From NCBI GenBank assembly GCA_028707065.1, contig JAQTUZ010000001.1:98737-162736 (forward strand): a stretch of 64,000 bases of DNA, in the 5' to 3' direction. The position numbers and the translations under genes were made by a program. Shown piece after piece: positions 420 to 61,008 of this stretch. How positions within the stretch are numbered: position 1 is the stretch's first letter; every line of letters begins with the position of its first letter. A model generated the notes under the pieces. The model was not told where the DNA came from, searched no databases, and saw only the letters and a list, made by a program, of their open reading frames with translations. The stretch is from Patescibacteria group bacterium (GTDB lineage: Bacteria; Patescibacteriota; Patescibacteriia; Patescibacteriales; WJLG01).

Positions 420-3293
420 ATGGCAAAAGGAAAAGAAAAATTAATAATTATCGACGGGAACGCCTTGATCCATCGCAGTTTTCACGCCCTGCCGCCGACT
501 TTGCGCACCAAAGACGGGGAGCTGGTCAACGCGGTTTACGGTTTTTCGGCCGTTTTGCTCAAGGCCTGGCGCGAATTGAAACCGGATTATATCGCCCTGA
601 CTTTAGATATGAAGGGGCCGACTTTCCGGCACAAGCAATATAAGGAATATAAAGCCACGCGCATCAAGGCGCCGCAAGATTTGTATGATCAAATTCCTCG
701 CGTCAAAGAAGTGGCTACGGCTTTTAATATTCCGATTTTTGAGTTGCAAGGTTTTGAAGCCGATGATCTGATCGGCACGATCGACAAAAAAGTCGATGCG
801 AGCGTGGAAAAAATAATCGTGACCGGTGATCTGGACACTTTGCAATTGATCGACGATGACACCAAAATTTTTACCATGGGCCACGGGCTTTCGGAAAGCG
901 TGGTTTATGATGCGGCTAGAGTTAAGGAGCGCTATGGGCTTACGGTTGACCAGATGATCGATTACAAAGCTTTACGCGGCGATCCTTCGGATAATATTCC
1001 CGGCGTCAAAGGAATTGGCGAGAAAACCGCGACTAAGCTTTTGCAAGAATTTGGGACTCTAGAAAATTTATATAAAAAGCTCCAAATTTCAAATTTCAAA
1101 TTTCAAATTTCGCCGAGAGTTACAGATTTATTAATTAAACACAAGAAGGACGCTTTCTTGTCGAAAGAACTCGCTACGATCAGATTGGACGTGCCGATAA
1201 AATTTGATTTGGAAAAATGCCGGGCTTATGATTTTGACCGGGAAAAAGTGGCGGGAATTTTCAGCGAGCTGGGTTTTAAGTCGCTTTTGCCGCGAGTGCA
1301 GGATTTGGTTTCCGCCCATTTTAAAGTTTCGGATAAATCCGGCTACGCCAAGGCTACGGCGGATAAATTTGAACGCGATCGCACCGAATTTAAATATATT
1401 TTAGTTGATGACGATAAAAAATTCGCTAAATTTTTGGCCGCGTTAAGCAAACAGAAACAATTTACGATTGATACGGAAACGACCGGATTTGACCCGTTAT
1501 TGGAGAATCTGCTTGGCATCAGTTTTTCTTGGCGTGAAAGCGAGGCTTATTTTATTGTCGCAAATAAGTCCCCTCTTGAGAGGGGTGGACGGCCCCTGGC
1601 CGGACAGGGTGTGTTAAAGGTGGTGAGCCAAAGTAGTCTATTTAAGGATGATAAAAAGGAAAGTACGGAGAAAAATAATCATCCGTGGCTGGAAAAATTG
1701 AAATCAATCTTGGAAGATGAGAAAATAAAAAAATGCGGGCATAATATTAAATTCGATCTGCGGGTGCTGCGCCATGCCGGGATTGAGATGAAAGGGATCG
1801 AGTTTGATACGATGGTCGCCTCATATTTATTAAATCCAGGCACTAGAGCGCATAATTTGGACGCGGTGACTTTTGCCGAGCTGGGCTTGGAAAAGATCAG
1901 CACCGAAGATCTGCTCGGATCGGGCAAAGACAAAAAAACTTTTGCCGCGGTCGAAACGGAAAAATTGGCGATTTATTCCTGCGAGGACGCCGATTGCACC
2001 AACCGGCTGGTGGCAAAATTGGCCAAGCATTTGCGCGATAAGGAATTAAGCAAACTTTTCGAGGAGATTGAAATGCCGCTGGTTTCAGTTTTGGCCACCA
2101 TGGAAGATAATGGTGTTATGATCGATAAAGATTTTTTGGCGGCCATGGATAAAAAAATTGCCAAAAAAATATCAACGCTGGAAAAAAAGATCTGGGATTT
2201 GGGCGGCGGCGAGTTTAACATTAATTCCACCCAGCAGTTGAAAGAAGTCTTATTTGAGAAATTAAATATTTCCACCGCCGGGATCGGCCATACCAAGACC
2301 GGTTATTCCACGGCCGCCGATGAATTGGAAAAATTAAAGCACGAGCACGAAATAATTCCGCTGATCCAGGAATATCGCGAACTGGCCAAATTGCAATCTA
2401 CTTATATTTTAGCTTTGCCGACTTTGATCAATCCCGTAACCGGCCGCGTCCATACCAGCTTCAATCAAACCGTCACCGCCACCGGCAGGCTTTCTTCGTC
2501 TGATCCGAATTTGCAGAATATCCCGATCCGCACCGAGCTGGGCCAGGAAATCCGCCATGCTTTTATCGCCCAGCCGGGCTGGAAAATAGTTTCGCTCGAC
2601 TATTCCCAGATTGAATTGCGCCTGGCCGCTCATTTATCCGGCGACCAAAGAATGATCGATACTTTTGAGCGCAGTTTGGATATTCATACTTCCACGGCCG
2701 CTGCGATCAATAATGTAAAGATTGAAGACGTTACCAAAAAAATGCGCCAGGAAGCCAAGGCAATCAATTTTGGAATTTTATACGGCCAGGGCGCGTATGG
2801 CTTATCGCAAAATACCGATATGCCGCTAAATCGCGCCAAGGAATTTATTGAGCATTATTTTGATCTCTATAAAAATATTAAAACTTATACCGAAGATATG
2901 GTAGAGTTTGCCCGTAAGAACGGCTACGTGGAAACATTATTCGGCCGTCGCCGCTATCTGCCCGAAATCACTTCGCAAGTGGCGCCGGTTCGCGCCGCGG
3001 CCGAGCGCATGGCCGTCAACACGCCCCTGCAAGGCACGAATGCCGATATGATCAAAAAAGCAATGATCTCGGCGCAAAATTTAATTGATGAAAAATATTC
3101 TGATAGTGTGAAGATGATCATTCAAGTCCATGACGAATTGGTTTTTGAGATGCGTGAAGACAAAATGAAAGAAGCCGCCGGCCGGATTCAGGACATCATG
3201 CGCGACATTCTGAAATTAAAAGTCCCGGTAGTGGTGGATATTGAGATCGGGGAGAGTTGGGGAGAGATGAATCGGCTCGAAAACAAAAAGTAA
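420..3293 (+). CDS. polA: DNA polymerase I (5' nuclease, 3'-5' exonuclease-like, polymerase domains)
   Basis: 957 aa; N-terminal LIIIDGNALIHRSFHAL 5' nuclease, FTIDTETTG exo motif, polymerase motifs DYSQIELR, KAINFGILYG, QVHDELVFE. Confidence 0.95.
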   Translation: MAKGKEKLIIIDGNALIHRSFHALPPTLRTKDGELVNAVYGFSAVLLKAWRELKPDYIALTLDMKGPTFRHKQYKEYKATRIKAPQDLYDQIPRVKEVATAFNIPIFELQGFEADDLIGTIDKKVDASVEKIIVTGDLDTLQLIDDDTKIFTMGHGLSESVVYDAARVKERYGLTVDQMIDYKALRGDPSDNIPGVKGIGEKTATKLLQEFGTLENLYKKLQISNFKFQISPRVTDLLIKHKKDAFLSKELATIRLDVPIKFDLEKCRAYDFDREKVAGIFSELGFKSLLPRVQDLVSAHFKVSDKSGYAKATADKFERDRTEFKYILVDDDKKFAKFLAALSKQKQFTIDTETTGFDPLLENLLGISFSWRESEAYFIVANKSPLERGGRPLAGQGVLKVVSQSSLFKDDKKESTEKNNHPWLEKLKSILEDEKIKKCGHNIKFDLRVLRHAGIEMKGIEFDTMVASYLLNPGTRAHNLDAVTFAELGLEKISTEDLLGSGKDKKTFAAVETEKLAIYSCEDADCTNRLVAKLAKHLRDKELSKLFEEIEMPLVSVLATMEDNGVMIDKDFLAAMDKKIAKKISTLEKKIWDLGGGEFNINSTQQLKEVLFEKLNISTAGIGHTKTGYSTAADELEKLKHEHEIIPLIQEYRELAKLQSTYILALPTLINPVTGRVHTSFNQTVTATGRLSSSDPNLQNIPIRTELGQEIRHAFIAQPGWKIVSLDYSQIELRLAAHLSGDQRMIDTFERSLDIHTSTAAAINNVKIEDVTKKMRQEAKAINFGILYGQGAYGLSQNTDMPLNRAKEFIEHYFDLYKNIKTYTEDMVEFARKNGYVETLFGRRRYLPEITSQVAPVRAAAERMAVNTPLQGTNADMIKKAMISAQNLIDEKYSDSVKMIIQVHDELVFEMREDKMKEAAGRIQDIMRDILKLKVPVVVDIEIGESWGEMNRLENKK
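1083..1110 (+). repeat. (CAAATTT)x4 heptamer tract inside polA
   Basis: Four perfect tandem heptamers read in frame as QISNFKFQIS. Confidence 0.85.
1331..1368 (+). repeat. 22-nt GC-rich insert flanked by 8-nt direct repeat GGATAAAT inside polA
   Basis: GGATAAAT-CCGGCTACGCCAAGGCTACGGC-GGATAAAT; 30 nt extra in total, giving DK-SGYAKATA-DK in frame. Confidence 0.6.
1569..1618 (+). repeat. family A GC-rich hairpin element, in frame in polA
   Basis: TCCCCTCTTGAGAGGGGTG + GGCCCCTGGCC hairpin + GGGTGTGTTAAA; peptide SPLERGGRPLAGQGVLK. Confidence 0.8.
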
Positions 3294-3373
3294 TAAGTAA
3301 AAAGTAAAAAAAGTAAGAAGTCAGGAGATAGAAGCTAGAAATTTTTAAAGTTATAAAGTTGAAAGTGGAAAAT

Positions 3374-3440
3374 TCCCCTCTTGGGAGGGGTGCCGAGCCC
3401 GCTTGTCCGCCTCGGGCGCGGGCGAGGCGGGGTGGGTTTA
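3374..3440 (+). repeat. family A GC-rich hairpin element, intergenic
   Basis: TCCCCTCTTGGGAGGGGTG + CCGCCTCG...CGAGGCGG hairpin + GGGTGGGTTTA downstream of polA. Confidence 0.75.
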
Positions 3441-4024: not shown

Positions 4025-5659
4025 TTGTCAATGAAAATCGTTAAAAATATCTTAAAATCGTTGAATAACAGGAAAATCGCCATGCTCGGGCTGGGGGTGG
4101 AAAATTTGGCGTTGGTGAAATATTTGTTACGCCGCAGTCCCGCGGCGGAGACTGCGGCGGGGCAAGGTTTGCACATTACCGTTTGTGATCCAAAGTCGGC
4201 GGCGGAATTGGGCGACAGATATTTGGAAATCAAGCAGCTGGCGAAGAAGAATAAATTGCCGGAAATAATTCTGATGACCGGCAAGAATTATGACGCGCAT
4301 CTGGCGGATTTTGACATTATTTTCCGTTCGCCCGGCTATCCGCTGTTCAATCCGAATTTGCTCAAAGCGAAAAAGGCCGGCGTGATAATTTCCAGCCCGA
4401 TGAAATTATTTTTTGAATTGTGTCCGACGAAAAATATCATCGGCGTCACCGGCTCGAAAGGTAAAGGCACGACTTCGTCGCTGATTTATGAAATTTTAAA
4501 AAAAGCCACAACCACCCCCGGAACCACCCCCAAACCCCTCCTTCGAAAGGAGGGGAGAGTTTGGCTGGGTGGAAATATCGGCAATGCGCCGTTTGAATTT
4601 ATCGAGAAAATAAAGCCGAAGGATTTCGTGGTTTTGGAATTATCCAGTTTTCAATTGGAAGATTTGGATGTGAGTCCGCATATTGCCGTGGTCACGAATT
4701 TATTCAAAGAACATTTGGCTCCGGCCGATCCGAACAATCCGAATTATCATCGGTCAATGAAAGATTATTGGGCGGCGAAAGCGAATATTTTCTCGCACCA
4801 GCAAAAAAATGATTATTTGGTTATAAATGAAAAATTGAAAAACAAAATTCCCCTCTCGAGAGGGGTGGCCGCGCCGCGCGGACGGGGTGTGTTAAATGGC
4901 GGCACAAAAGTAATCTTTTGTTCTAGCTCTGCTTTGCCAAGTAATTTGATTGGGGCGCATAACAAAGAAAACTTGGCGGCGGCCGAGGCGGTGGCGAAAA
5001 TTTTGAAGATCAAGCCGGAAATCGTGGCGCGGGCGGTGAAAAATTTCCAGGGCTTGCCGCATCGGCTCGAATTTGTGGCTGAAATTAACGGCGTCAGATA
5101 TTTTGATGATAGCTTTGCGACCGTGCCCGATGTTTCGGTAATCGCGCTTAAAGCGGTCGGCGGAAAGTCCCCTCTCGAGAGGCCCACCTACGCTAAAGCT
5201 CCGGTAGGGCAAGGGTGGCCAACCTTAAAAGAGATAGCTTGTCCAACGAAGCTCCGCCGCGGAGCGAAGTTGGAGGGTGTGTTAAAGTTGGGTGGTAGTA
5301 AAAGCGAGATTGCTTCGCGAGGCGCTCGCAATGACAAAAATATAATATTGTTGGCCGGCGGCGCGGACAAAGGTTCGGATTTTAAAAAATTCGCCCAAGA
5401 AATAACCAAGCGCGTAAAATATTTAATTTTATTCAAAGGCAAAGGGACGGATAGATTGAAGAAAGAATTACAAATTACAAATTACAAATTTCCGATCATT
5501 GCAGTTGACACTATGAAAAAAGCTGTGGAAATTGCCAGACGAGAGGCGGAGTTGGGCGACGTTATCCTGCTTTCCACCGGTTGCGCCAGCTTCGGCTGTT
5601 TTAAAAATTATAAAGAACGAGGTGACTTTTTCAAGGAGGAGACGCTAAAAAACAAATAA
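4025..5659 (+). CDS. murD: UDP-N-acetylmuramoylalanine--D-glutamate ligase with several repeat-derived insertions
   Basis: 544 aa; Mur ligase P-loop GVTGSKGKGTT, GGNIGNAPFEF, HRLEFV, LLAGGADKGSDF; extra segments match dispersed repeats. Confidence 0.9.
   Translation: MSMKIVKNILKSLNNRKIAMLGLGVENLALVKYLLRRSPAAETAAGQGLHITVCDPKSAAELGDRYLEIKQLAKKNKLPEIILMTGKNYDAHLADFDIIFRSPGYPLFNPNLLKAKKAGVIISSPMKLFFELCPTKNIIGVTGSKGKGTTSSLIYEILKKATTTPGTTPKPLLRKEGRVWLGGNIGNAPFEFIEKIKPKDFVVLELSSFQLEDLDVSPHIAVVTNLFKEHLAPADPNNPNYHRSMKDYWAAKANIFSHQQKNDYLVINEKLKNKIPLSRGVAAPRGRGVLNGGTKVIFCSSSALPSNLIGAHNKENLAAAEAVAKILKIKPEIVARAVKNFQGLPHRLEFVAEINGVRYFDDSFATVPDVSVIALKAVGGKSPLERPTYAKAPVGQGWPTLKEIACPTKLRRGAKLEGVLKLGGSKSEIASRGARNDKNIILLAGGADKGSDFKKFAQEITKRVKYLILFKGKGTDRLKKELQITNYKFPIIAVDTMKKAVEIARREAELGDVILLSTGCASFGCFKNYKERGDFFKEETLKNK
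4511..4555 (+). repeat. family B element (with a 9-nt partial duplication), in frame in murD
   Basis: ACCACCCCCgga-ACCACCCCCAAACCCCTCCTTCGAAAGGAGGGG; peptide TTPGTTPKPLLRKEG right after the P-loop. Confidence 0.85.
4849..4896 (+). repeat. family A element, in frame in murD
   Basis: TCCCCTCTCGAGAGGGGTG-GCCGCGCCGCGCGGAC-GGGGTGTGTTAAA; peptide IPLSRGVAAPRGRGVLN. Confidence 0.85.
5168..5285 (+). repeat. long-A element (about 118 nt), in frame in murD
   Basis: Collinear with the intergenic copy at 60891-61008, about 85 percent identical by eye; shared GCTCCGCCGCGGAGC hairpin. Confidence 0.85.
5307..5339 (-). repeat. family C hairpin (ATTGC/GCAAT variant), in frame in murD
   Basis: Reverse complement reads TTTTGTCATTGCGAGCGCCTCGCGAAGCAATCT, collinear with TTTTGTCATCCTGAGCGCCGCGCGAAGGATCT at 10466. 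Confidence 0.75.
5467..5491 (+). repeat. (ATTACAA)x3 heptamer tract inside murD
   Basis: Tandem heptamers read in frame as LQITNYKF. Confidence 0.8.
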
Positions 5660-10629: not shown

Positions 10630-10723
10630 GGAGATGTGCCAGAGTGGTCGCCCGCTACGTCGGCCTTTGGCCGCGAGCGGGTCCGCGCACGCCGCCATCG
10701 GGCGGCGATGTCGCGGAAATGGG
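10630..10723 (+). pseudogene. duplicated 5' part of tRNA-Ser interrupted in the D-loop by a family E element
   Basis: GGAGATGTGCCAGAGTGGTCG [67 nt] AATGGG versus intact GGAGAGGTGCCAGAGTGGTCGAATGGG at 10980. Confidence 0.7.
10651..10717 (+). repeat. family E GC-rich double-hairpin element
   Basis: CCCGCTACGTCGGCC..GGCCGCGAGCGGGTCCGCGCA..ATGTCGCGGA; a reverse-complement copy lies at 15234-15297. Confidence 0.85.
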
Positions 10724-13870: not shown

Positions 13871-14034
13871 GGGGTCTGTTGCTGAATGCCGTATTTGTCC
13901 TAAATCTTCAAATTTCGGTAAATTTTTTCAAAAATATTTTCGCCGATATTGTTATATCGCCTCAAAAATTTTTGAAAAAATTTCCTCAAAATTTGAAAAT
14001 TTATGCCTAAAAGAGCATTCAGCAATAGACCCCC
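13871..14034. repeat. long imperfect hairpin / MITE-like element
   Basis: GGGGTCTGTTGCTGAATGC at the left versus GCATTCAGCAATAGACCCC at the right (18 of 19 complementary), AT-rich partly palindromic core. Confidence 0.6.
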
Positions 14035-14100
14035 TTTTTCTTGCTTTTTTTGTCAAAGTTTTATAGTATTAAAAACAGCCCAGATCGGGTTGTTTTTATT

Positions 14101-14124
14101 CGGGGTATAGTATAGCGGTAGTAT
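14101..14124 (+). pseudogene. tRNA-Pro-like 5' fragment (acceptor plus D-arm only)
   Basis: CGGGGTA-TA-GTAT-AGCGGTA-GTAT, then hairpin CCCGCCatccGGCGGG; no anticodon arm follows. Confidence 0.6.
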
Positions 14125-14158
14125 CCCGCCATCCGGCGGGACAAGCGCGCCTAAAAAA

Positions 14159-14229
14159 CGGGCTGTAGTATAATGGTAGTACGCGTGCATGGGGTGCATG
14201 TAGCCGCGGTTCGATTCCGCGCAGCCCGA
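14159..14229 (+). tRNA. tRNA-Pro (anticodon GGG)
   Basis: Acceptor CGGGCTG/CAGCCCG, anticodon arm CGTGC-ATGGGGT-GCATG, T-arm CGCGG-TTCGATT-CCGCG. Confidence 0.85.
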
Positions 14230-14241
14230 CAGAATTACGTT

Positions 14242-14297
14242 GAAATTCTCGGAGCGAAGCGGAGACCCCGCTGGATAGCGGGGCCAGTACCCCGACA
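14242..14297 (+). pseudogene. tRNA-Pro-like 3' fragment with the T-loop replaced by a GC hairpin
   Basis: TTCTCGG [31 nt incl. CCCCGCtggataGCGGGG] CCAGTACCCCGACA versus intact TTCTGGGTTCAAATCCCAGTACCCCGACCA. Confidence 0.55.
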
Positions 14298-14346
14298 GGA
14301 TCAATTAACAATTAAAAATTAAAAATGAGGAATTATTGTTTATTGA

Positions 14347-14411
14347 GGGTAATTAGCTCAGTTGGTTATCCGCCCCAGGCGGACCCGCCTTGGGCGGGGA
14401 GCGCTACACCC
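14347..14411 (+). pseudogene. tRNA-Val-like 5' fragment with a 31-nt double hairpin in the D-loop
   Basis: GGGTAATTAGCTCAGTTGGTTA [TCCGCCccaGGCGGA CCCGCCttgGGCGGGg] AGCGCTACA, then no 3' half. Confidence 0.6.
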
Positions 14412-14447
14412 TTAAGCAAATAAAAAGTTTTTAAAACTAGAACACAG

Positions 14448-14521
14448 GGACAATTAGCTCAGTTGGTTAGAGCGCTGCATTCACATTGCAGAGGTCACTG
14501 GTTCGAGCCCAGTATTGTCCA
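14448..14521 (+). tRNA. tRNA-Val (anticodon CAC)
   Basis: Acceptor GGACAAT/ATTGTCC, anticodon arm CTGCA-TTCACAT-TGCAG, T-arm ACTGG-TTCGAGC-CCAGT. Confidence 0.9.
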
Positions 14522-14525
14522 CCGA

Positions 14526-14596
14526 GGGCCTATAGTCTAGCGGTACGACGCTACATTCGCATTGTAGAGGCGGCAGTTCGACTCTGCCTAGGTCCA
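14526..14596 (+). tRNA. tRNA-Ala (anticodon CGC)
   Basis: Acceptor GGGCCTA/TAGGTCC with a G3:U70 pair, anticodon arm CTACA-TTCGCAT-TGTAG. Confidence 0.9.
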
Positions 14597-14630
14597 CAAG
14601 AAGATTTTTTAGTCGTGAATTAATGATGAA

Positions 14631-14688
14631 GTCCTCCTTCGCGGCATTGGCGGGCTTAGCCCGCCGAAGTCCGCTTCGGCGGACGAAG
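14631..14688 (+). repeat. GC-rich three-stem element abutting the 5' end of tRNA-Gly
   Basis: Outer CCTTCG/CGAAGG, inner GGCGGGCttaGCCCGCC and GTCCGCttcgGCGGAC. Confidence 0.6.
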
Positions 14689-14761
14689 GCGGGAGTAGCT
14701 CATCTGGTAGAGCGCGACCTTCCCAAGGTTGAGGCAGCGGGTTCAAGCCCCGTCTCCCGCT
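14689..14761 (+). tRNA. tRNA-Gly (anticodon CCC)
   Basis: Acceptor GCGGGAG/CTCCCGC, anticodon arm CGACC-TTCCCAA-GGTTG. Confidence 0.9.
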
Positions 14762-14926
14762 CATAAAATTAAAAATCAGTTTTTCTGATTTTTAATTTTA
14801 TCGGACGAAAGGGGGTTGAACTAGGCAGGAGCGAGGCAAATTTTCTGCTATTTCAGTAAGTAAATTGTAAATTTTGAAGCGCAAATTAATTTATAATTTG
14901 TAATTCATAATTTATAATTCCAGTAA

Positions 14927-15008
14927 GGGCATGTGGCGAAATTGGTAGACGCACACGCTTCAGGTGCGTGCGGAGCAATCCTTGAGAGTTCGAGTCTCTC
15001 CATGCCCA
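14927..15008 (+). tRNA. tRNA-Leu (anticodon CAG)
   Basis: Acceptor GGGCATG/CATGCCC, anticodon arm CACGC-TTCAGGT-GCGTG, long variable arm. Confidence 0.9.
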
Positions 15009-15134
15009 CTACATCAATTAAAAATTAAAAATGCAAAATTAAAAATATTTTAATTGACACGCAAATATTTATATTGTAAGGTAAATTCATTAATTGAATT
15101 TTTAACTTTTCACTTTTAATTTTTAATTGATTTT

Positions 15135-15211
15135 CGGGGTATGGCCTAACTGGCTATGGCGCACGCTTCGGGTGCGTGAGGTTCTGGGTTCAAATCCCAG
15201 TACCCCGACCA
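15135..15211 (+). tRNA. tRNA-Pro (anticodon CGG), CCA encoded
   Basis: Acceptor CGGGGTA/TACCCCG, anticodon arm CACGC-TTCGGGT-GCGTG, T-arm CTGGG-TTCAAAT-CCCAG, ACCA tail. Confidence 0.9.
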
Positions 15212-15218
15212 TTTTCAC

Positions 15219-15317
15219 GAGAGTTCTGGGGTTTCCGCGACATTCCGCCATGGGCGGATGCGCGGACCCGCTCGCGGCCCCTGGCCGACGTAGCGGGCAA
15301 GTCCCAGTACCCCGACA
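15219..15317 (+). pseudogene. duplicated 3' part of tRNA-Pro(CGG) with a family E element in the T-loop
   Basis: GAGAGTTCTGGGGTT [64 nt] AAGTCCCAGTACCCCGACA, starting 7 nt after the intact tRNA. Confidence 0.7.
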
Positions 15318-15321
15318 AATA

Positions 15322-34557: not shown

Positions 34558-35823
34558 ATGGCTCTGGTAAATAAAACTATTTTTGTCTTAGCATTTTTAG
34601 CGTTGTTTTTTTCGGCACGGCAAGTTTTGGCGGCCGATAATATCAAGACAACGGAATTTTATATTTATGATTCGGCTCTGCCGGTCAGTTCGGCGGTCAG
34701 CCAGGATTTTTCCGTCTATATCGGCGATAATATCGGCGCGGTAACCGATCCGATCAAATCCGCTTACTTCAAGATTTCCGGAACTTATACCGGCGGCGGC
34801 ACGCTTGATTTGAAGATTAATTCCGGGAATTCCAAAATTTATAACTTGCCAACGGTCGGCAGCCCGACTTATTTCGAATTGCTTTATGCCGATACTTCCT
34901 CGGTCATTGATCCTTCCAGCGCGGGAAATTATAGTTATAATTTCAGCCTGACTCCTGATAGCGTCACTATTTACGGCCTGGGAGTGAAACTGGATCTGAC
35001 TTACCAATATCAGCCGGCCTTTTGTCCGGACGGCTCGAGCCAAAAAGTTAAGACCACGGAATTTTACGTTTACGACTCTGATTCAGTTATCAATCCCGAC
35101 TCTAACATAAGCCAGGATTTCCCCGTTTATATCGGCGATAATATCGGCGCGGTAACCGATCCGATCAAGTCCGCTTACTTCAAAGTTTCCGGAACTTATA
35201 CCGGCGGCGGAAGCATAAATTTCACTCTTAATTCGGGCAATTCCCAGATTTACAATTTGCCGTCAGCGGTCAGCCCGACGTATTTTGAATTGCTTTACGC
35301 TGACACTTCGGCGATGATCGCTCCTGGCTCGGCGGGAACTTATTATTTTAATCTGGGCATCAACCCGACCGGCGTGACGATCTATGGCGCGGGAGCGGCG
35401 CTGGACCTGACTTATCAATATGCTCCGCCTTCTTGCGCTGGCTTGCCGCCGACCGGAGAATTGACTTCAGCTATTTTCGATACGATTCAAACCGCGGCGT
35501 ATAATTCGATTATGTGGCAAGGGACGTTCAACGGCGGCAATGGCCGGGTGCGCTTCAAGTTGGCGACTTCCAACAGTTCGAGCGGGCCGTGGAATCCGGA
35601 GAATTTTTTCGGCAGTTCAGACAATGGCGTAACCTGCGACAATGTCTCTTGGTATGATCCGGGCGCGCCAGAAACGCCGATCGAAATAACTTGCGCTCCG
35701 GCCAATCATAATAATCAGCGTTATTTCCGCTATAAAGTCCAGCTTTGTTCCTATAGTAATTGCACGGATTCGGGGAGTGCCAGCCCGGAAGTAAATAAAG
35801 TTATCGTTAATTGGAGCCCATGA
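34558..35823 (+). CDS. secreted protein with a tandem 135-aa repeat
   Basis: Signal peptide; two repeats starting TTEFY(I/V)YDS and ending LDLTYQY.P. Confidence 0.7.
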   Translation: MALVNKTIFVLAFLALFFSARQVLAADNIKTTEFYIYDSALPVSSAVSQDFSVYIGDNIGAVTDPIKSAYFKISGTYTGGGTLDLKINSGNSKIYNLPTVGSPTYFELLYADTSSVIDPSSAGNYSYNFSLTPDSVTIYGLGVKLDLTYQYQPAFCPDGSSQKVKTTEFYVYDSDSVINPDSNISQDFPVYIGDNIGAVTDPIKSAYFKVSGTYTGGGSINFTLNSGNSQIYNLPSAVSPTYFELLYADTSAMIAPGSAGTYYFNLGINPTGVTIYGAGAALDLTYQYAPPSCAGLPPTGELTSAIFDTIQTAAYNSIMWQGTFNGGNGRVRFKLATSNSSSGPWNPENFFGSSDNGVTCDNVSWYDPGAPETPIEITCAPANHNNQRYFRYKVQLCSYSNCTDSGSASPEVNKVIVNWSP

Positions 35824-51293: not shown

Positions 51294-51557
51294 ATGGTAT
51301 TAAGCAAGACATTTAATGCTTTGTCCGATCCGAGCCGGCAAAAAATATTGGAATTATTGAAGAAGGGCGATCTGGCGGCCGGAGCGATCGGCGAATATTT
51401 TAAATTCACGGCCCCGACCTTGTCGCATCACCTGGGCGTGCTTAAGGATGCCGACTTGATTTCGGTGCGCCGCGACGGGCAGATGCAGATCTATTCGCTG
51501 AACTTGTCGGTCTTTGAAGAGGTAGCCGAGAAGGTTATAAAATTTTTTAAGAAATAA
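51294..51557 (+). CDS. ArsR/SmtB family transcriptional regulator (SdpR-like)
   Basis: 87 aa; LSDPSRQKILELL...TLSHHLGVLKDADLI winged helix. Confidence 0.85.
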   Translation: MVLSKTFNALSDPSRQKILELLKKGDLAAGAIGEYFKFTAPTLSHHLGVLKDADLISVRRDGQMQIYSLNLSVFEEVAEKVIKFFKK

Positions 51558-51565
51558 ATTAGCGT

Positions 51566-51661
51566 ATTAGTTGATTAGTTAATTGGTTAATTAGTTTACG
51601 ATTTAATAGGCAAAAATCATTAACCCATTCAACCAATTAACTAATTAACCAATTAACTAAT
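51566..51661. repeat. family F AT-rich hairpin ending at a start codon
   Basis: 31-nt arms of TTAGTTAATTGGTTAA-type sequence, 27 of 31 complementary, 34-nt loop; the right arm ends 1 nt before ATG 51662. Confidence 0.75.
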
Positions 51662-52321
51662 ATGAATCCCATCAAACTAACAATCAAATCCGAACTATTT
51701 TCCATCCTGCTGATCGCGATCTCTATCGCCGCCTCGTTTTATTTTTACGCGCATTTTCCCGACCGGGTGATAACTCATTGGGATTTCGCCGGCGAGCCGA
51801 ACGGCTGGAGCGGCCGCGCTTTTGCCGCTTTTTTCTTTCCCGCGCTGTTTATCGCCATGTATCTGTTATTTATTTTTTTACCGATGCTTGATCCCAAAAA
51901 GGACCGTTATGCCGAATTCGCCAAAATTTATAATGTTTTTCGAAATCTGATTCTGGCGGTTTTGGTGGTTGTTTATTTTGTCGCCTCATTCAATAATTTA
52001 GGCGTAAATTCCAACGTCGGGCTTTGGGTTCCCGGAGTGATCGGCCTGTTGTTCATTGTTTTAGGCAACTATCTGGGAAAGATCAAGCGGAATTGGTTCG
52101 TCGGCATCCGCACTCCCTGGACCATGTCCTCCGAGACAGTCTGGAATAAAACTCACCGTTTCGGCGGCAAGGTTTTTATTTTCGGCGGCGTTTTAATGAT
52201 CATCACCGGTTTCGCGCCGCTCTCCTGGCGCTTGCCAATATTCATCGCCGATATTATCATATTATTATTCGGAACCATCATATATTCGTACTTGGTTTAT
52301 CGCAAGGAAAAGAAAAAATAA
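51662..52321 (+). CDS. SdpI/YhfL family membrane protein (DUF1648 plus SdpI domains)
   Basis: FPDRVITHWDFAGEPNGW and WFVGIRTPWTMSSETVWNKTHRFGG motifs. Confidence 0.7.
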   Translation: MNPIKLTIKSELFSILLIAISIAASFYFYAHFPDRVITHWDFAGEPNGWSGRAFAAFFFPALFIAMYLLFIFLPMLDPKKDRYAEFAKIYNVFRNLILAVLVVVYFVASFNNLGVNSNVGLWVPGVIGLLFIVLGNYLGKIKRNWFVGIRTPWTMSSETVWNKTHRFGGKVFIFGGVLMIITGFAPLSWRLPIFIADIIILLFGTIIYSYLVYRKEKKK

Positions 52322-52381: not shown

Positions 52382-53197
52382 ATGCTCGATGATTTTATGT
52401 CTTTCTTCATCGATAGCGCCGACAATCCGAAAATAAAAAATATCCTCAAATTGCAAAGGCCCCACGAGCGCAAAAAGCAGGGGGTAGTTTTGGTTGAGGG
52501 CTATAAAGAAATTCTGGCCGCACTCAAGGCCGGTTTGAATTTGGTGGAAATTTTTTATTGCGCGACTTATGGCGGAGAAAATCCTTCTTTTTTCGGCGTG
52601 GACAAAGACAAAAAATTAATCGCCAATGTTTCGCGGGAAGTTTTTGAAAAAATCACTTATCGCGAAAAGCCCGATGGCTACATCGCGATTTTTTTGGCTC
52701 GAAATTTAAAACTCTCTGATGTAAAATTAAGCGCGGCGCCGCTGGTTCTGGTGATCGAGGGCGCGGAAAAGCCCGGCAATTTCGGAGCGATCCTGCGCAC
52801 CGCTGATGCGGCCGGAGTCGATGTGGTCATAGCCAATGATCCGCAATTGGATATCTATCATCCCAACGCCATCCGCGCGAGCATTGGCGCGGCTTTTGAC
52901 AAGCAGATCGCCATCGCCACCCGCGAAGAAACGATCGCCTGGTTAGCTGAAAATAATATTACGACTTACGCCACTTCTAAGCGCGCCACCAAAGTCTATG
53001 TTGATTTTGATTATACTCAAGGCACGGCTTTTATTTTGGGCGCCGAACATGCCGGCTTAAGCGAAGAATGGAAAGATTCGGCTGACGAATTCATCACCAT
53101 CCCGATGACCGGTATCGTCGATTCGCTCAATCTTTCCGTCAGCGCCGGCATCTTGCTTTTCGAAGCTGTCCGGCAACGGAAAAAAATCCCCTCTTGA
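52382..53197 (+). CDS. SpoU/TrmH family RNA 2'-O-methyltransferase
   Basis: PGNFGAILRTADAAG, ILGAEHAGLS, IPMTGIVDSLNLSVSAGILLFE. Confidence 0.85.
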   Translation: MLDDFMSFFIDSADNPKIKNILKLQRPHERKKQGVVLVEGYKEILAALKAGLNLVEIFYCATYGGENPSFFGVDKDKKLIANVSREVFEKITYREKPDGYIAIFLARNLKLSDVKLSAAPLVLVIEGAEKPGNFGAILRTADAAGVDVVIANDPQLDIYHPNAIRASIGAAFDKQIAIATREETIAWLAENNITTYATSKRATKVYVDFDYTQGTAFILGAEHAGLSEEWKDSADEFITIPMTGIVDSLNLSVSAGILLFEAVRQRKKIPS

Positions 53198-53235
53198 GAG
53201 GGGTGGCTCGCGCCTCGCGGGACGGGGTGTGTAAA
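53187..53235 (+). repeat. family A element supplying the last codons and the stop of the TrmH-like gene
   Basis: TCCCCTCTTGAGAGGGGTG-GCTCGCGCCTCGCGGGAC-GGGGTGTGTAAA; the TGA within CTCTTGAGAGG is the stop. Confidence 0.8.
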
Positions 53236-60302: not shown

Positions 60303-60480
60303 GATTTCCGCCTTTCTGACTTAATTTATAGTTTATTGTGAATGTGCAAAAATTTGGAATATCGCCGGTACGAGTAGCGATATCTTCGGCTAATCTTATA
60401 ATAAATTAGTGGCGCGGTCAAATCGGGAATACATCGCATTTCCCGCGGTTGACAGACGCGATGAAAGCGGTAAAATCTAT

Positions 60481-60590
60481 ATTAGTTACTTAGTTAATTA
60501 GTCAATTAGTTGAATGGTTGATAAACGGATGACTTAATTTGCTAATAAACTAAAAATTTATCAACCAATTGACTAATTAACCAATCAACT
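60481..60590. repeat. family F AT-rich hairpin ending at a start codon
   Basis: TTAATTAGTCAATT..GGTTGATAAA pairs with TTTATCAACC-AATTGACTAATTAA; the right arm ends at ATG 60591. Confidence 0.7.
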
Positions 60591-60887
60591 ATGTCTTATC
60601 AAGAACATATCGAAGTAGTGGAGGGGAAGCAGCCGAAGAGCAAAATCATGCTTTACGGCTTAAGCACTTGCATGTGGTGCGAAAAAGCCAAAGAACTTTT
60701 GGACGAACTGGGAATTGCTTACAGCCATCTGACGGTTGATCAACTGGAGGGCGCCGATCAGGATGAAGCTTATGAATTGGTTTCCAAATATAATCCTGAC
60801 CAATCTTTCCCGACAATTGTTTTGGACGACGGCAAAAGAGTGATCATCGGTTTTAGCGAAGACGAATTGCGAGCTTTGGCCGCATAA
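60591..60887 (+). CDS. glutaredoxin-like (thioredoxin-fold) protein
   Basis: 98 aa; CMWC active site, then FPTIVLDDGKRVIIGF. Confidence 0.75.
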   Translation: MSYQEHIEVVEGKQPKSKIMLYGLSTCMWCEKAKELLDELGIAYSHLTVDQLEGADQDEAYELVSKYNPDQSFPTIVLDDGKRVIIGFSEDELRALAA

Positions 60888-60890
60888 TAT

Positions 60891-61008
60891 TCCCCTCCCC
60901 AGGAGGCCCGCCTCCGCTAAAGCTGCGGCAGGGCAAGGGTGGCTCATCTTGAAAAAGATAGCTTGCCCAGCGAAGCTCCGCCGCGGAGCGAAGTTGGGGG
61001 GTGGGTTT
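60891..61008 (+). repeat. long-A element, intergenic copy
   Basis: Collinear with 5168-5285 in murD. Confidence 0.85.

Follow-up and report, generated by a model that had tools for sequence, protein, structure and literature searches.

The gene for DNA polymerase I (polA, positions 420..3293, encoding 957 aa) lies in a 64,000-nt stretch of a Patescibacteria metagenome-assembled genome (MAG), here called the window, and carries three repeat segments within its open reading frame (ORF): an array of a 7-nt unit (site 1), a GC-rich 30-nt hairpin module (site 2) and a double-hairpin element that we refer to as family A (site 3). The earlier note on this DNA had described three repeat segments inside polA, all of which keep the frame; the present analysis bears out that description and places each segment in a dispersed class. 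The reading that we favor, with a probability of about 0.7, is that this genome, a member of the Candidate Phyla Radiation (CPR), has been colonized by several very short repeat families, and that polA holds one member of each of three, tolerated in permissive loops and linkers. (L-numbers below denote DNA loci of relatives and P-numbers orthologous proteins; both are labels of the present analysis. The repeats in and around polA and murD are on the plus strand, except where stated.)

Pfam recognized the domains 5_3_exonuc_N, 5_3_exonuc, DNA_pol_A_exo1 and DNA_pol_A in the polA product, which shares 100% identity with a protein from a Patescibacteria MAG that bears the name DNA polymerase I; identity is 83–87% to its closest relatives (P0002–P0005) and 72–74% to the next group (P0006–P0012). 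The exonuclease residues D351, E353, N442, D446, Y519 and D523, together with many residues of the polymerase domain, were invariant in an alignment of 30 orthologs, and therefore the enzyme is probably active. A single ORF reads through all three repeat segments in frame. In the AlphaFold (AF2) model, the segments form loops or a low-confidence linker, and the catalytic motifs are intact. The assignment of each of the three segments as a member of a dispersed repeat, inserted in frame in a loop or linker of variable length, is thus supported by the data.

At site 1, Tandem Repeats Finder (TRF) reported a (CAAATTT)x4.1 array at 1083..1111 with 100% matches. It encodes QISNFKFQIS (residues 222–231), which forms a loop between helices 214–221 and 232–240 in the AF2 model. 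The window holds six period-7 arrays of at least 4 copies, compared to 0 in dinucleotide-preserving shuffles and 0 at periods 6 and 8–12. In 823 kb of related CPR DNA, there were 51 period-7 arrays of at least 3.5 copies, against 1–7 at periods 5, 6, 8 and 9, an enrichment of about 7- to 50-fold; the density was 62–99 per Mb in CPR loci, versus 14 per Mb in non-CPR polA loci. Rather than decaying steadily, the copy number has its mode at 4.5–5 and a sharp cut-off, with almost no arrays above 5 copies, and this characteristic size (≈31–35 nt) holds for coding and non-coding arrays alike. Roughly half of them fall within long ORFs, among them murG, those for the isoleucyl- and leucyl-tRNA synthetases (IleRS and LeuRS), ligA, recJ, ksgA and a PFOR-like gene, while the intergenic ones sit 2–7 nt from start codons and tRNA ends. 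A fourth repeat at polA, an (AAAAAGT)-type array at 3285..3316 (TRF rows 3285–3310 and 3299–3316), spans the last codons and the stop codon (3291–3293); the polA gene of L084 ends in an (ATAAAAA) array at the same place.

In a codon alignment of polA from the window and seven relatives, an array of 4–5 copies occupies the site 1 position in all, with differing units. The unit is CAAATTT in the window and in L083, perfect in both. L081 has five copies of CAAATTC, with the identical T>C change in each copy; L082 and L084 have an ATTAAAA unit with one T>G change that abolishes an in-frame TAA, and L087 has a TTAAGAA unit with the same T>G change. The unit is GAGCAAA in L085, and in L086 the CAAATTT array is interrupted by a nested 25-nt hairpin. 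Thus, the array does belong to a dispersed class and is in frame, as had been claimed, but it is not an insertion private to this polA. Many more distant orthologs have a short, array-less loop at site 1 (YKNIKSxKIKDR), and arrays recur sporadically among distant orthologs, such as a CAAATTT array in L019 (46% identity). The same pattern, in which the position is kept and the unit is exchanged in all copies at once, was seen at site 5 of the adjacent murD gene and in EamA/Wzy intergenic spacers. An on/off frameshift pattern of the contingency-locus type was not found: the arrays in polA, murD, aminoacyl-tRNA synthetase genes and ligA are all in frame and have 4–5 copies in every ortholog.

Two further observations concern the arrays. 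Some contain nested mini-hairpins of 14–25 nt, for example CCTCGGCCYGAGCTCGGGACGAAGG and CCGCCGGCCGGCGG (L086 6001–8967 and 9308–10849; L083 9778–11502). Within the window, a cluster of six tRNA genes at 14100–15320 is interleaved with heptamer arrays at 14303, 14887, 15016 and 15097, each 5–7 nt from a tRNA end.

At site 2, a 22-nt core (CCGGCTACGCCAAGGCTACGGC, 1339–1360) lies between two copies of GGATAAAT at 1331–1338 and 1361–1368. Core and downstream copy make up the 30-nt GC-rich hairpin module (1339..1368), encoding (S)GYAKATADK. The flanking direct repeat is 9 nt rather than the 8 nt described previously (CGGATAAAT, at 1330–1338 and 1360–1368); its upstream copy (1330..1338, codons S-D-K) resembles the 3' tail of the module, GGAYAAR. 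Shuffled versions of polA contained on average 5.1 exact 8-mer repeats at spacings of 9–60, and at least one in 98.5% of shuffles; by itself, a direct repeat of 8–9 nt is at chance level. The claim of a 22-nt GC-rich insert that adds 30 nt was nevertheless borne out, as a dispersed module with the family consensus CCGCCTNCGCTAAAGCTNCGGC followed by GGACAAG. In a mismatch-tolerant search of all the DNA analyzed (1.45 Mb), the L084 ortholog (CCGCCTACGCTAAAGCTACGGC followed by GGATAAA) agreed with the copies in L015 and at window position 60908 in 20 of 22 bases (26 of 29 when the tail is counted), for which the estimated chance expectation is ≈5e-6. Additional copies were found at window position 5184 (within a long murD element), in L019 and L026, and in L198, where there are three in tandem. 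All coding copies are in a single frame, giving the peptide xAKAxxDK.

The module at polA site 2 is common to L081, L082, L084 and L085. The five closest orthologs encode SDK[SA][AG]YA[KQ]A[TA]AD[KR]F there, with mainly synonymous differences, while in the sister clade the linker is unrelated in sequence and about as long (21 vs 18 residues), and the protein alignment is without gaps. In L015, by contrast, the module is a clean 10-residue (30-nt) insertion, DLIGK[PASAKAAADK]GKGQ, at another site of polA that is empty in more than 30 orthologs. In the ortholog alignment that had been proposed to reveal indels, sites 1 and 3 are variable. At site 2, the close orthologs share the module and align without a gap, so that only the related copies elsewhere identify it as an insertion. 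Judged by the protein and codon alignments, site 2 had seemed to be a non-insertion, a view overturned by the dispersed 30-nt module and the clean insertion in L015. We conclude that segment 2 is a real, old in-frame insertion that predates the divergence of the P0001–P0005 clade, because the module is shared by the five closest orthologs. It falls in the linker that joins the 5'-nuclease domain to the exonuclease domain, where residues 301–314 have a predicted local distance difference test (pLDDT) score below 50.

The target-site duplication suggested for this insert is plausible but unproven. A search for related GC-rich inserts with flanking repeats, as had been suggested, found the copies in L015 (GGCAAAC/GGACAAAG) and L198 (GGACAAG/GGACAAG), so that GGAYAAR-like sequence is present on both sides of the hairpin core in these two loci as well as in the polA clade of the window. 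The repeat thus recurs, but the module itself ends in a conserved GGACAAG tail, and the upstream flank in L198 is part of the preceding tandem module. A target-site duplication, a microhomology-guided insertion at conserved A-D-K-F codons and a 30-nt tandem duplication are all possible origins. (In L198, three consecutive modules at 4150–4265 form a 10-residue tandem repeat, xAKAxxDK, within an ORF.) To judge from this triple copy, the module can apparently also multiply in tandem.

The third segment, at site 3, is a family A element, and its description as such, in the variable segment of the exonuclease domain, was confirmed at 1569..1615, between the Exo I and Exo II motifs. The element is 47 nt long (TCCCC...GTGTT, then AAAG) and encodes SPLERGGRPLAGQGVL; the translation through the element reads SPLERGGRPLAGQGVLK. 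It consists of a constant hairpin (CCCCTC/GAGGGG, 1570–1585), a variable hairpin (CGGCC/GGCCG, 1590–1602) and the tail AGGGTGTGTT, following the general family layout of a TCCCCTC-loop-GAGGGG hairpin, TG, a second hairpin and CGGGGTGTGTT. Residues 384–417, which include this loop, have pLDDT values below 50. The 18-nt core of family A has five matches in the window, versus 0.02 expected, with other copies at 3375, 4850 and 53188, and an exact-pattern scan found at least 128 copies of 44–54 nt in metagenome contigs from many environments. The constant hairpin does not vary. The sequence of the second one is different in most of the copies listed, but it forms a near-perfect stem of 5–9 bp each time; four of its base pairs have changes on both sides that preserve pairing. 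(The MAFFT alignment was out of register in the variable hairpin, and such covariation counts understate the pairing in individual copies.)

Among 144 family A copies, position –2 is A in 93% and position –1 is T in 65%; the flanks are A-rich on the 5' side and heterogeneous on the 3' side, and their composition gave no indication of a target-site duplication. There are no terminal inverted repeats either: the ends are TCCCCTC... and ...GGGGTGTGTT, in which only CCCC/GGGG are complementary. Lacking both of these features, family A is not a classical miniature inverted-repeat transposable element. Copies occur in both orientations, and 37–43% of those listed are in ORFs (47 of 127 have at least 50 open codons on each side). 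Five of the six reading frames are used; frame +2, which has a TGA in the loop, was never found.

At polA site 3, the nearest relatives have a heptamer array in place of family A, with the unit AAGAGAG, ATTAAGA, ATAAAAA or AAGAAGA. L083, L086 and P0009 have a family A element with the same second hairpin and boundaries as the window, the family A copy of P0008 differs in its second hairpin, and unrelated repeat peptides (FPRRRESS..., GIACLPDRQASRGARNDK) occupy the site in other orthologs. Because the arrays are found in the nearest relatives and family A in more distant orthologs, site 3 appears to be a hot spot with turnover and not the product of one insertion event. The situation here and at murD site 3 suggested that the arrays might serve as landing pads for family A, but 0 of 144 copies had a period-7 array in their 45-nt flanks, and the idea was therefore dismissed as a general rule. 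Another family A copy, 65 nt long and with a long second hairpin, is in the intergenic region downstream of polA (3374..3438). We considered a role for it as a terminator; however, no site resembling an intrinsic terminator scored there. A further copy at 53187–53233 overlaps the 3' end of an ORF for an SpoU-type rRNA methylase (52382–53197), and the TGA in the first hairpin loop is the stop codon of that ORF.

The DNA of the window polA is about 81% identical to that of L081, L082, L084 and L085 and about 73% identical to that of L083 and L086, and two of the repeats depart from this. Family A at site 3 is identical at 46 of 48 bases to L083 and at 47 of 48 to L086 (96–98%), including 15–16 of 16 third codon positions, while only 18–25 of the 37–40 third codon positions flanking it (≈50%) are identical. 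The array at site 1 is identical to that of L083 at 29 of 30 bases. Since conservation at the DNA level is thus far above that of flanking synonymous sites, the repeats appear to be governed by their own dynamics and not by PolA function, and to be maintained or renewed as DNA, whatever happens to the host gene. Constraint on the hairpin, conversion from other copies or re-insertion could be responsible. A recent recombination tract from an L083-like lineage, which would account for the array unit and family A that the window has in common with L083 and L086, was also considered and rejected, since only the elements are alike, with ≈50% identity at flanking third codon positions. In L086, polA site 1 and murD site 5 hold the same composite of an array with a nested 25-nt hairpin, identical at about 40 of 42 bases, which argues for copying between loci.

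The colonization reading may be put in mechanistic terms as follows. The micro-repeats would be non-autonomous and would spread through the genome, with selection keeping in-frame, stop-free copies in permissive loops. The polA insertions would have survived by lying in permissive surface loops and linkers, having no stop in the frame used and leaving the frame intact, and translation would add residues to the loops. Both family A and the 30-nt module may be non-autonomous hairpin elements that copy into A-rich sites, in the manner of repetitive extragenic palindromic (REP) elements and mitochondrial GC clusters. A hairpin in single-stranded DNA or RNA probably matters for the propagation of family A, because the second hairpin keeps its structure while its sequence varies. 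The heptamer arrays, in turn, would be long-lived loci that are repeatedly homogenized, likely by strand slippage together with ectopic gene conversion between arrays, a combination that would explain why all copies of an array switch to a new unit together. Within genes, selection would remove array states that are out of frame or contain stops.

A number of observations weigh against this scenario. Pfam identified no mobilizing enzyme (transposase, integrase or reverse transcriptase) among the 60 ORFs of the window; there were only a 115-aa GIY-YIG and a 105-aa HNH protein, and nothing ties either to the repeats. The lengths of family A copies in ORFs are not confined to one class modulo 3 (chi-square p = 0.38), so that insertion cannot have consisted in simply adding the element as delimited. 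Simple slippage predicts a decaying copy number and no preference for period 7, at odds with the observed mode and cut-off, and an array with a stop-avoiding mismatch cannot change its unit via a perfect intermediate, yet the ATTAAAA and ATTAAGA arrays share the T>G change. Slippage with ectopic conversion is the default explanation for the arrays, but it predicts neither the exclusive 7-nt period nor the copy-number mode nor the stop-avoiding unit changes. No fresh insertion or excision was seen in the comparison set, which is without near-identical strains. We infer translation of the inserts from their frame and the pattern of synonymous changes.

A bolder proposal, which we regard as tentative and rather improbable, is that the arrays are an undescribed element of Patescibacteria, length-regulated at about 4.5–5 units (31–35 nt), which stays at fixed loci in genes and spacers and is rewritten whole by a dedicated templated or conversion mechanism, not by ordinary slippage. 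Together with the mini-hairpins of 25–50 nt, such elements would keep altering the surface loops that essential proteins have throughout the radiation.

Arrays of 7-bp heptads are bound by ribbon-helix-helix proteins, of which plasmid omega is one. We considered the possibility that the repeats act as nucleic acid, the arrays being tandem protein-binding sites and the GC-rich hairpins signals for RNA stability or processing, with the in-gene copies being by-products or regulating their host mRNA. The characteristic array size of 4.5–5 units, whether in coding or non-coding DNA, the location of intergenic arrays at 2–7 nt from start codons and tRNA ends, the conservation of nucleotides far above flanking synonymous sites and the preservation of the second family A hairpin as a structure are all consistent with this. 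However, the units vary widely within a genome and between orthologous sites, unlike what a single sequence-specific binder would entail; Rfam found only tRNAs in the window, with no match to the repeats; the intergenic family A copy that follows polA does not resemble a terminator; and copies reside in loops of unrelated essential genes in both orientations. On balance, a role as nucleic acid seems unlikely.

Still less likely is that the inserted peptides are selected for protein function as new flexible loops or interaction surfaces, comparable to the disordered regions born of repeats in Borg elements. Five orthologs retain the module peptide, with changes in its codons that are mainly synonymous, array-type peptides (e.g., KSEKLKVKS) persist at site 3 in orthologs of 60–88% identity, and the segments are predicted to be disordered, as such a role would lead one to expect. 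At the same sites, however, close relatives hold unrelated peptides and some have none, family A is read in five frames and orientations as unrelated peptides, and conservation is at the DNA level, third codon positions included. We also give little credence to the idea that segment 2 is an ordinary linker with a coincidental repeat and coincidental similarities, which would leave only two true repeat insertions. The absence of an alignment gap, the linker lengths of 21 and 18 residues and the chance expectation for 8-mer direct repeats agree with it, and so does the window 22-mer itself, which outside the orthologs has only 5-mismatch matches, near chance. It does not account for the identity of the L084 module (20/22, or 26/29 with the tail) to the copies in L015 and at 60908, the frame and xAKAxxDK peptide that the coding copies share, or the clean 30-nt insertion in L015. 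Finally, although this is a MAG contig and short repeats can mislead assemblers, assembly or annotation artefacts can practically be dismissed, since contigs that were assembled independently, from different samples and sources, show the same elements at these positions, repeats of 28–47 nt are shorter than sequencing reads, and the polA ORF is intact.

Several known systems resemble parts of this picture. The original work on Rickettsia palindromic elements (RPEs) is reportedly that of Ogata et al. in 2000. RPEs are dispersed palindromic repeats found in frame in many unrelated housekeeping ORFs, where they are translated and compatible with the protein fold (PMC10969869). Likewise, the elements described here are in frame in polA, murD and the IleRS and LeuRS genes, and the polA insertions are at loops and regions with pLDDT below 50. 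By description, however, the two are set apart: RPEs are ≈100–150 bp long, comprise families 1–10 and occur in Rickettsia, whereas those in Patescibacteria are 30 and 44–54 nt long, and several unrelated families share the same hot spots with heptamer arrays.

Mitochondrial GC clusters, such as GC42, are GC-rich hairpins of 30–50 nt in a more AT-rich genome, with a constrained hairpin, composite forms and an uncertain mechanism of transposition (PMC4478555). A passage of the same paper, referring to Paquin et al. 2000, mentions double-hairpin elements with two adjacent hairpins (PMC4478555). The Patescibacteria repeats are similarly small, GC-rich hairpins in an AT-richer genome that merge into composites, and family A shares the two adjacent hairpins with the fungal mitochondrial double-hairpin elements. 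Unlike the mitochondrial clusters, which are organellar and mostly intergenic, about 40% of family A copies are in ORFs, and whereas GC42 has an AG target duplication, family A has none. REP elements and their paired forms (REPINs) are also short, GC-rich, imperfect palindromes that are non-autonomous, are present in many copies per genome and, as here, are conserved more in structure than in sequence. They differ in being extragenic with a conserved 5' GTAG, while the present elements have in-gene copies and other conserved ends. The REP-associated Y1 transposase (RAYT) was not seen in the 64-kb window (Pfam, 60 ORFs, no transposase).

For the arrays, the closest parallels are in cyanobacteria and in Borgs. 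Mazel et al. are said to have described, in 1990, the short tandemly repeated repetitive (STRR) sequences of heterocystous cyanobacteria, which are dispersed tandem arrays of a 7-nt unit with no known function. A cyanobacterial heptamer probe is cited in a part of PMC3542288. The present arrays are likewise dispersed tandem repeats of a 7-nt unit; however, STRR units are CCCCAGT and similar, while those described here are A/T-rich, AATTNNN-like and others (CAAATTT, AATTACA, ATTAAAA), and belong to another phylum. They also differ in being capped near 5 copies, in their frequent location in essential genes and in the change of unit in all copies at orthologous sites. In Borg elements, the units of repeats within genes reportedly have lengths divisible by 3, whereas each copy of the 7-nt unit here shifts the frame, so that only certain total lengths and stop-free units are viable. 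The fast-evolving, perfect tandem repeats in Borg ORFs add disordered residues to the proteins (PMC9879509). In the literature, we found no description of these repeats in CPR. Translated selfish micro-repeats are a known phenomenon, and the heptamer arrays are the potentially novel component.

The murD gene adjoins polA on the downstream side (4025–5659). Its product has 544 aa in the window and 449–574 aa among relatives. Its in-frame repeat insertions number at least five and comprise a family A copy, the short form of family A, a composite of 121 nt, a further hairpin, which encodes SEIASRGARNDK, and an array of AATTACA units. The short relative of family A, on the minus strand at 4522..4558, was detected as inverted-repeat pairs, consists of the hairpin CCCCTCC/GGAGGGG and GGGGGTGGTT, and encodes PKPLLRKEG; in the murD alignment, relatives are empty at this site or have other elements. 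A full family A copy at 4849..4893 encodes PLSRGVAAPRGRGVL, and L086 and L087 have a heptamer array at this position. The composite long family A element (5163..5283) contains an internal 30-nt module at 5184–5212 and is 88% identical to 60903–61007; its site is empty in L081 and L087. The array, found by TRF as (AATTACA)x3.6 at 5466..5490, encodes LQITNYKF, and the orthologous arrays have the units GTTACGA, AAATACG, CAAATTT and CAAATCT. Overall, there are at least five hot spots in murD, which, depending on the lineage, hold family A in either orientation, the short form, the long composite, other hairpins or arrays, or are empty. Repeat families were also found in frame in murG, IleRS, LeuRS, LigA, RecJ and KsgA, with family A peptides in the IleRS and LeuRS ORFs.

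If this reading is right, essential enzymes of streamlined CPR bacteria (PolA, MurD, MurG, IleRS, LeuRS, LigA, RecJ) tolerate and exchange translated micro-repeats at recurrent hot spots, and the repeats would be a source of variation in protein length and of spurious "hypothetical" peptides in MAG annotation. Such segments can distort alignments, phylogenies and structure predictions; at site 2, an old insertion leaves no trace in the ortholog alignment. No standard slippage model predicts the strict period of 7, the mode near 5 and the change of unit in all copies at conserved positions. If a dedicated enzyme exists, this would be a new mechanism of mobile DNA; if none does, it would be an independent second case of the RPE type, again in a reduced genome.

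Other features of the window are described here for completeness. The tRNA cluster also contains tRNA fragments with GC-rich inserts. One such sequence, at 14347–14420, resembles the 5' half of the neighboring tRNA-Val with ≈30 nt inserted in the D-loop, and was called by neither ARAGORN nor Rfam; duplicated 3' ends of tRNA-Pro are present near 14285 and 15300. Just upstream of the cluster, at 13871–14033, is an A/T-rich inverted repeat with 70-nt arms (76% complementary) and a 23-nt spacer. A pair of 49-nt, GC-rich inverted repeats (10650–10698 and 15250–15298, 86% complementary) bounds a 4.6-kb segment that includes the 115-aa GIY-YIG ORF, a tRNA-Ser, the 105-aa HNH ORF, MliC-like, peptidase S51 and TspO genes and the tRNA cluster. 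This segment may be invertible or mobile.

Paired arrays of an 8-nt unit in opposite orientations (ATTAGTTA/TAACTAAT type) are located at two places 8.9 kb apart, 51557–51667 and 60472–60594. One precedes an SdpI-like gene and comes after a small ArsR-like ORF, and the other precedes a glutaredoxin gene; in appearance, they resemble operator or iteron sites. Lastly, the ORF at 34558–35823, of unknown function, has a 300-nt internal direct repeat (34699–35409, 76% identical) and adjoins genes for type IV pili (T2SSE, T2SSF, pilins and PilM) at 22.8–39.7 kb.

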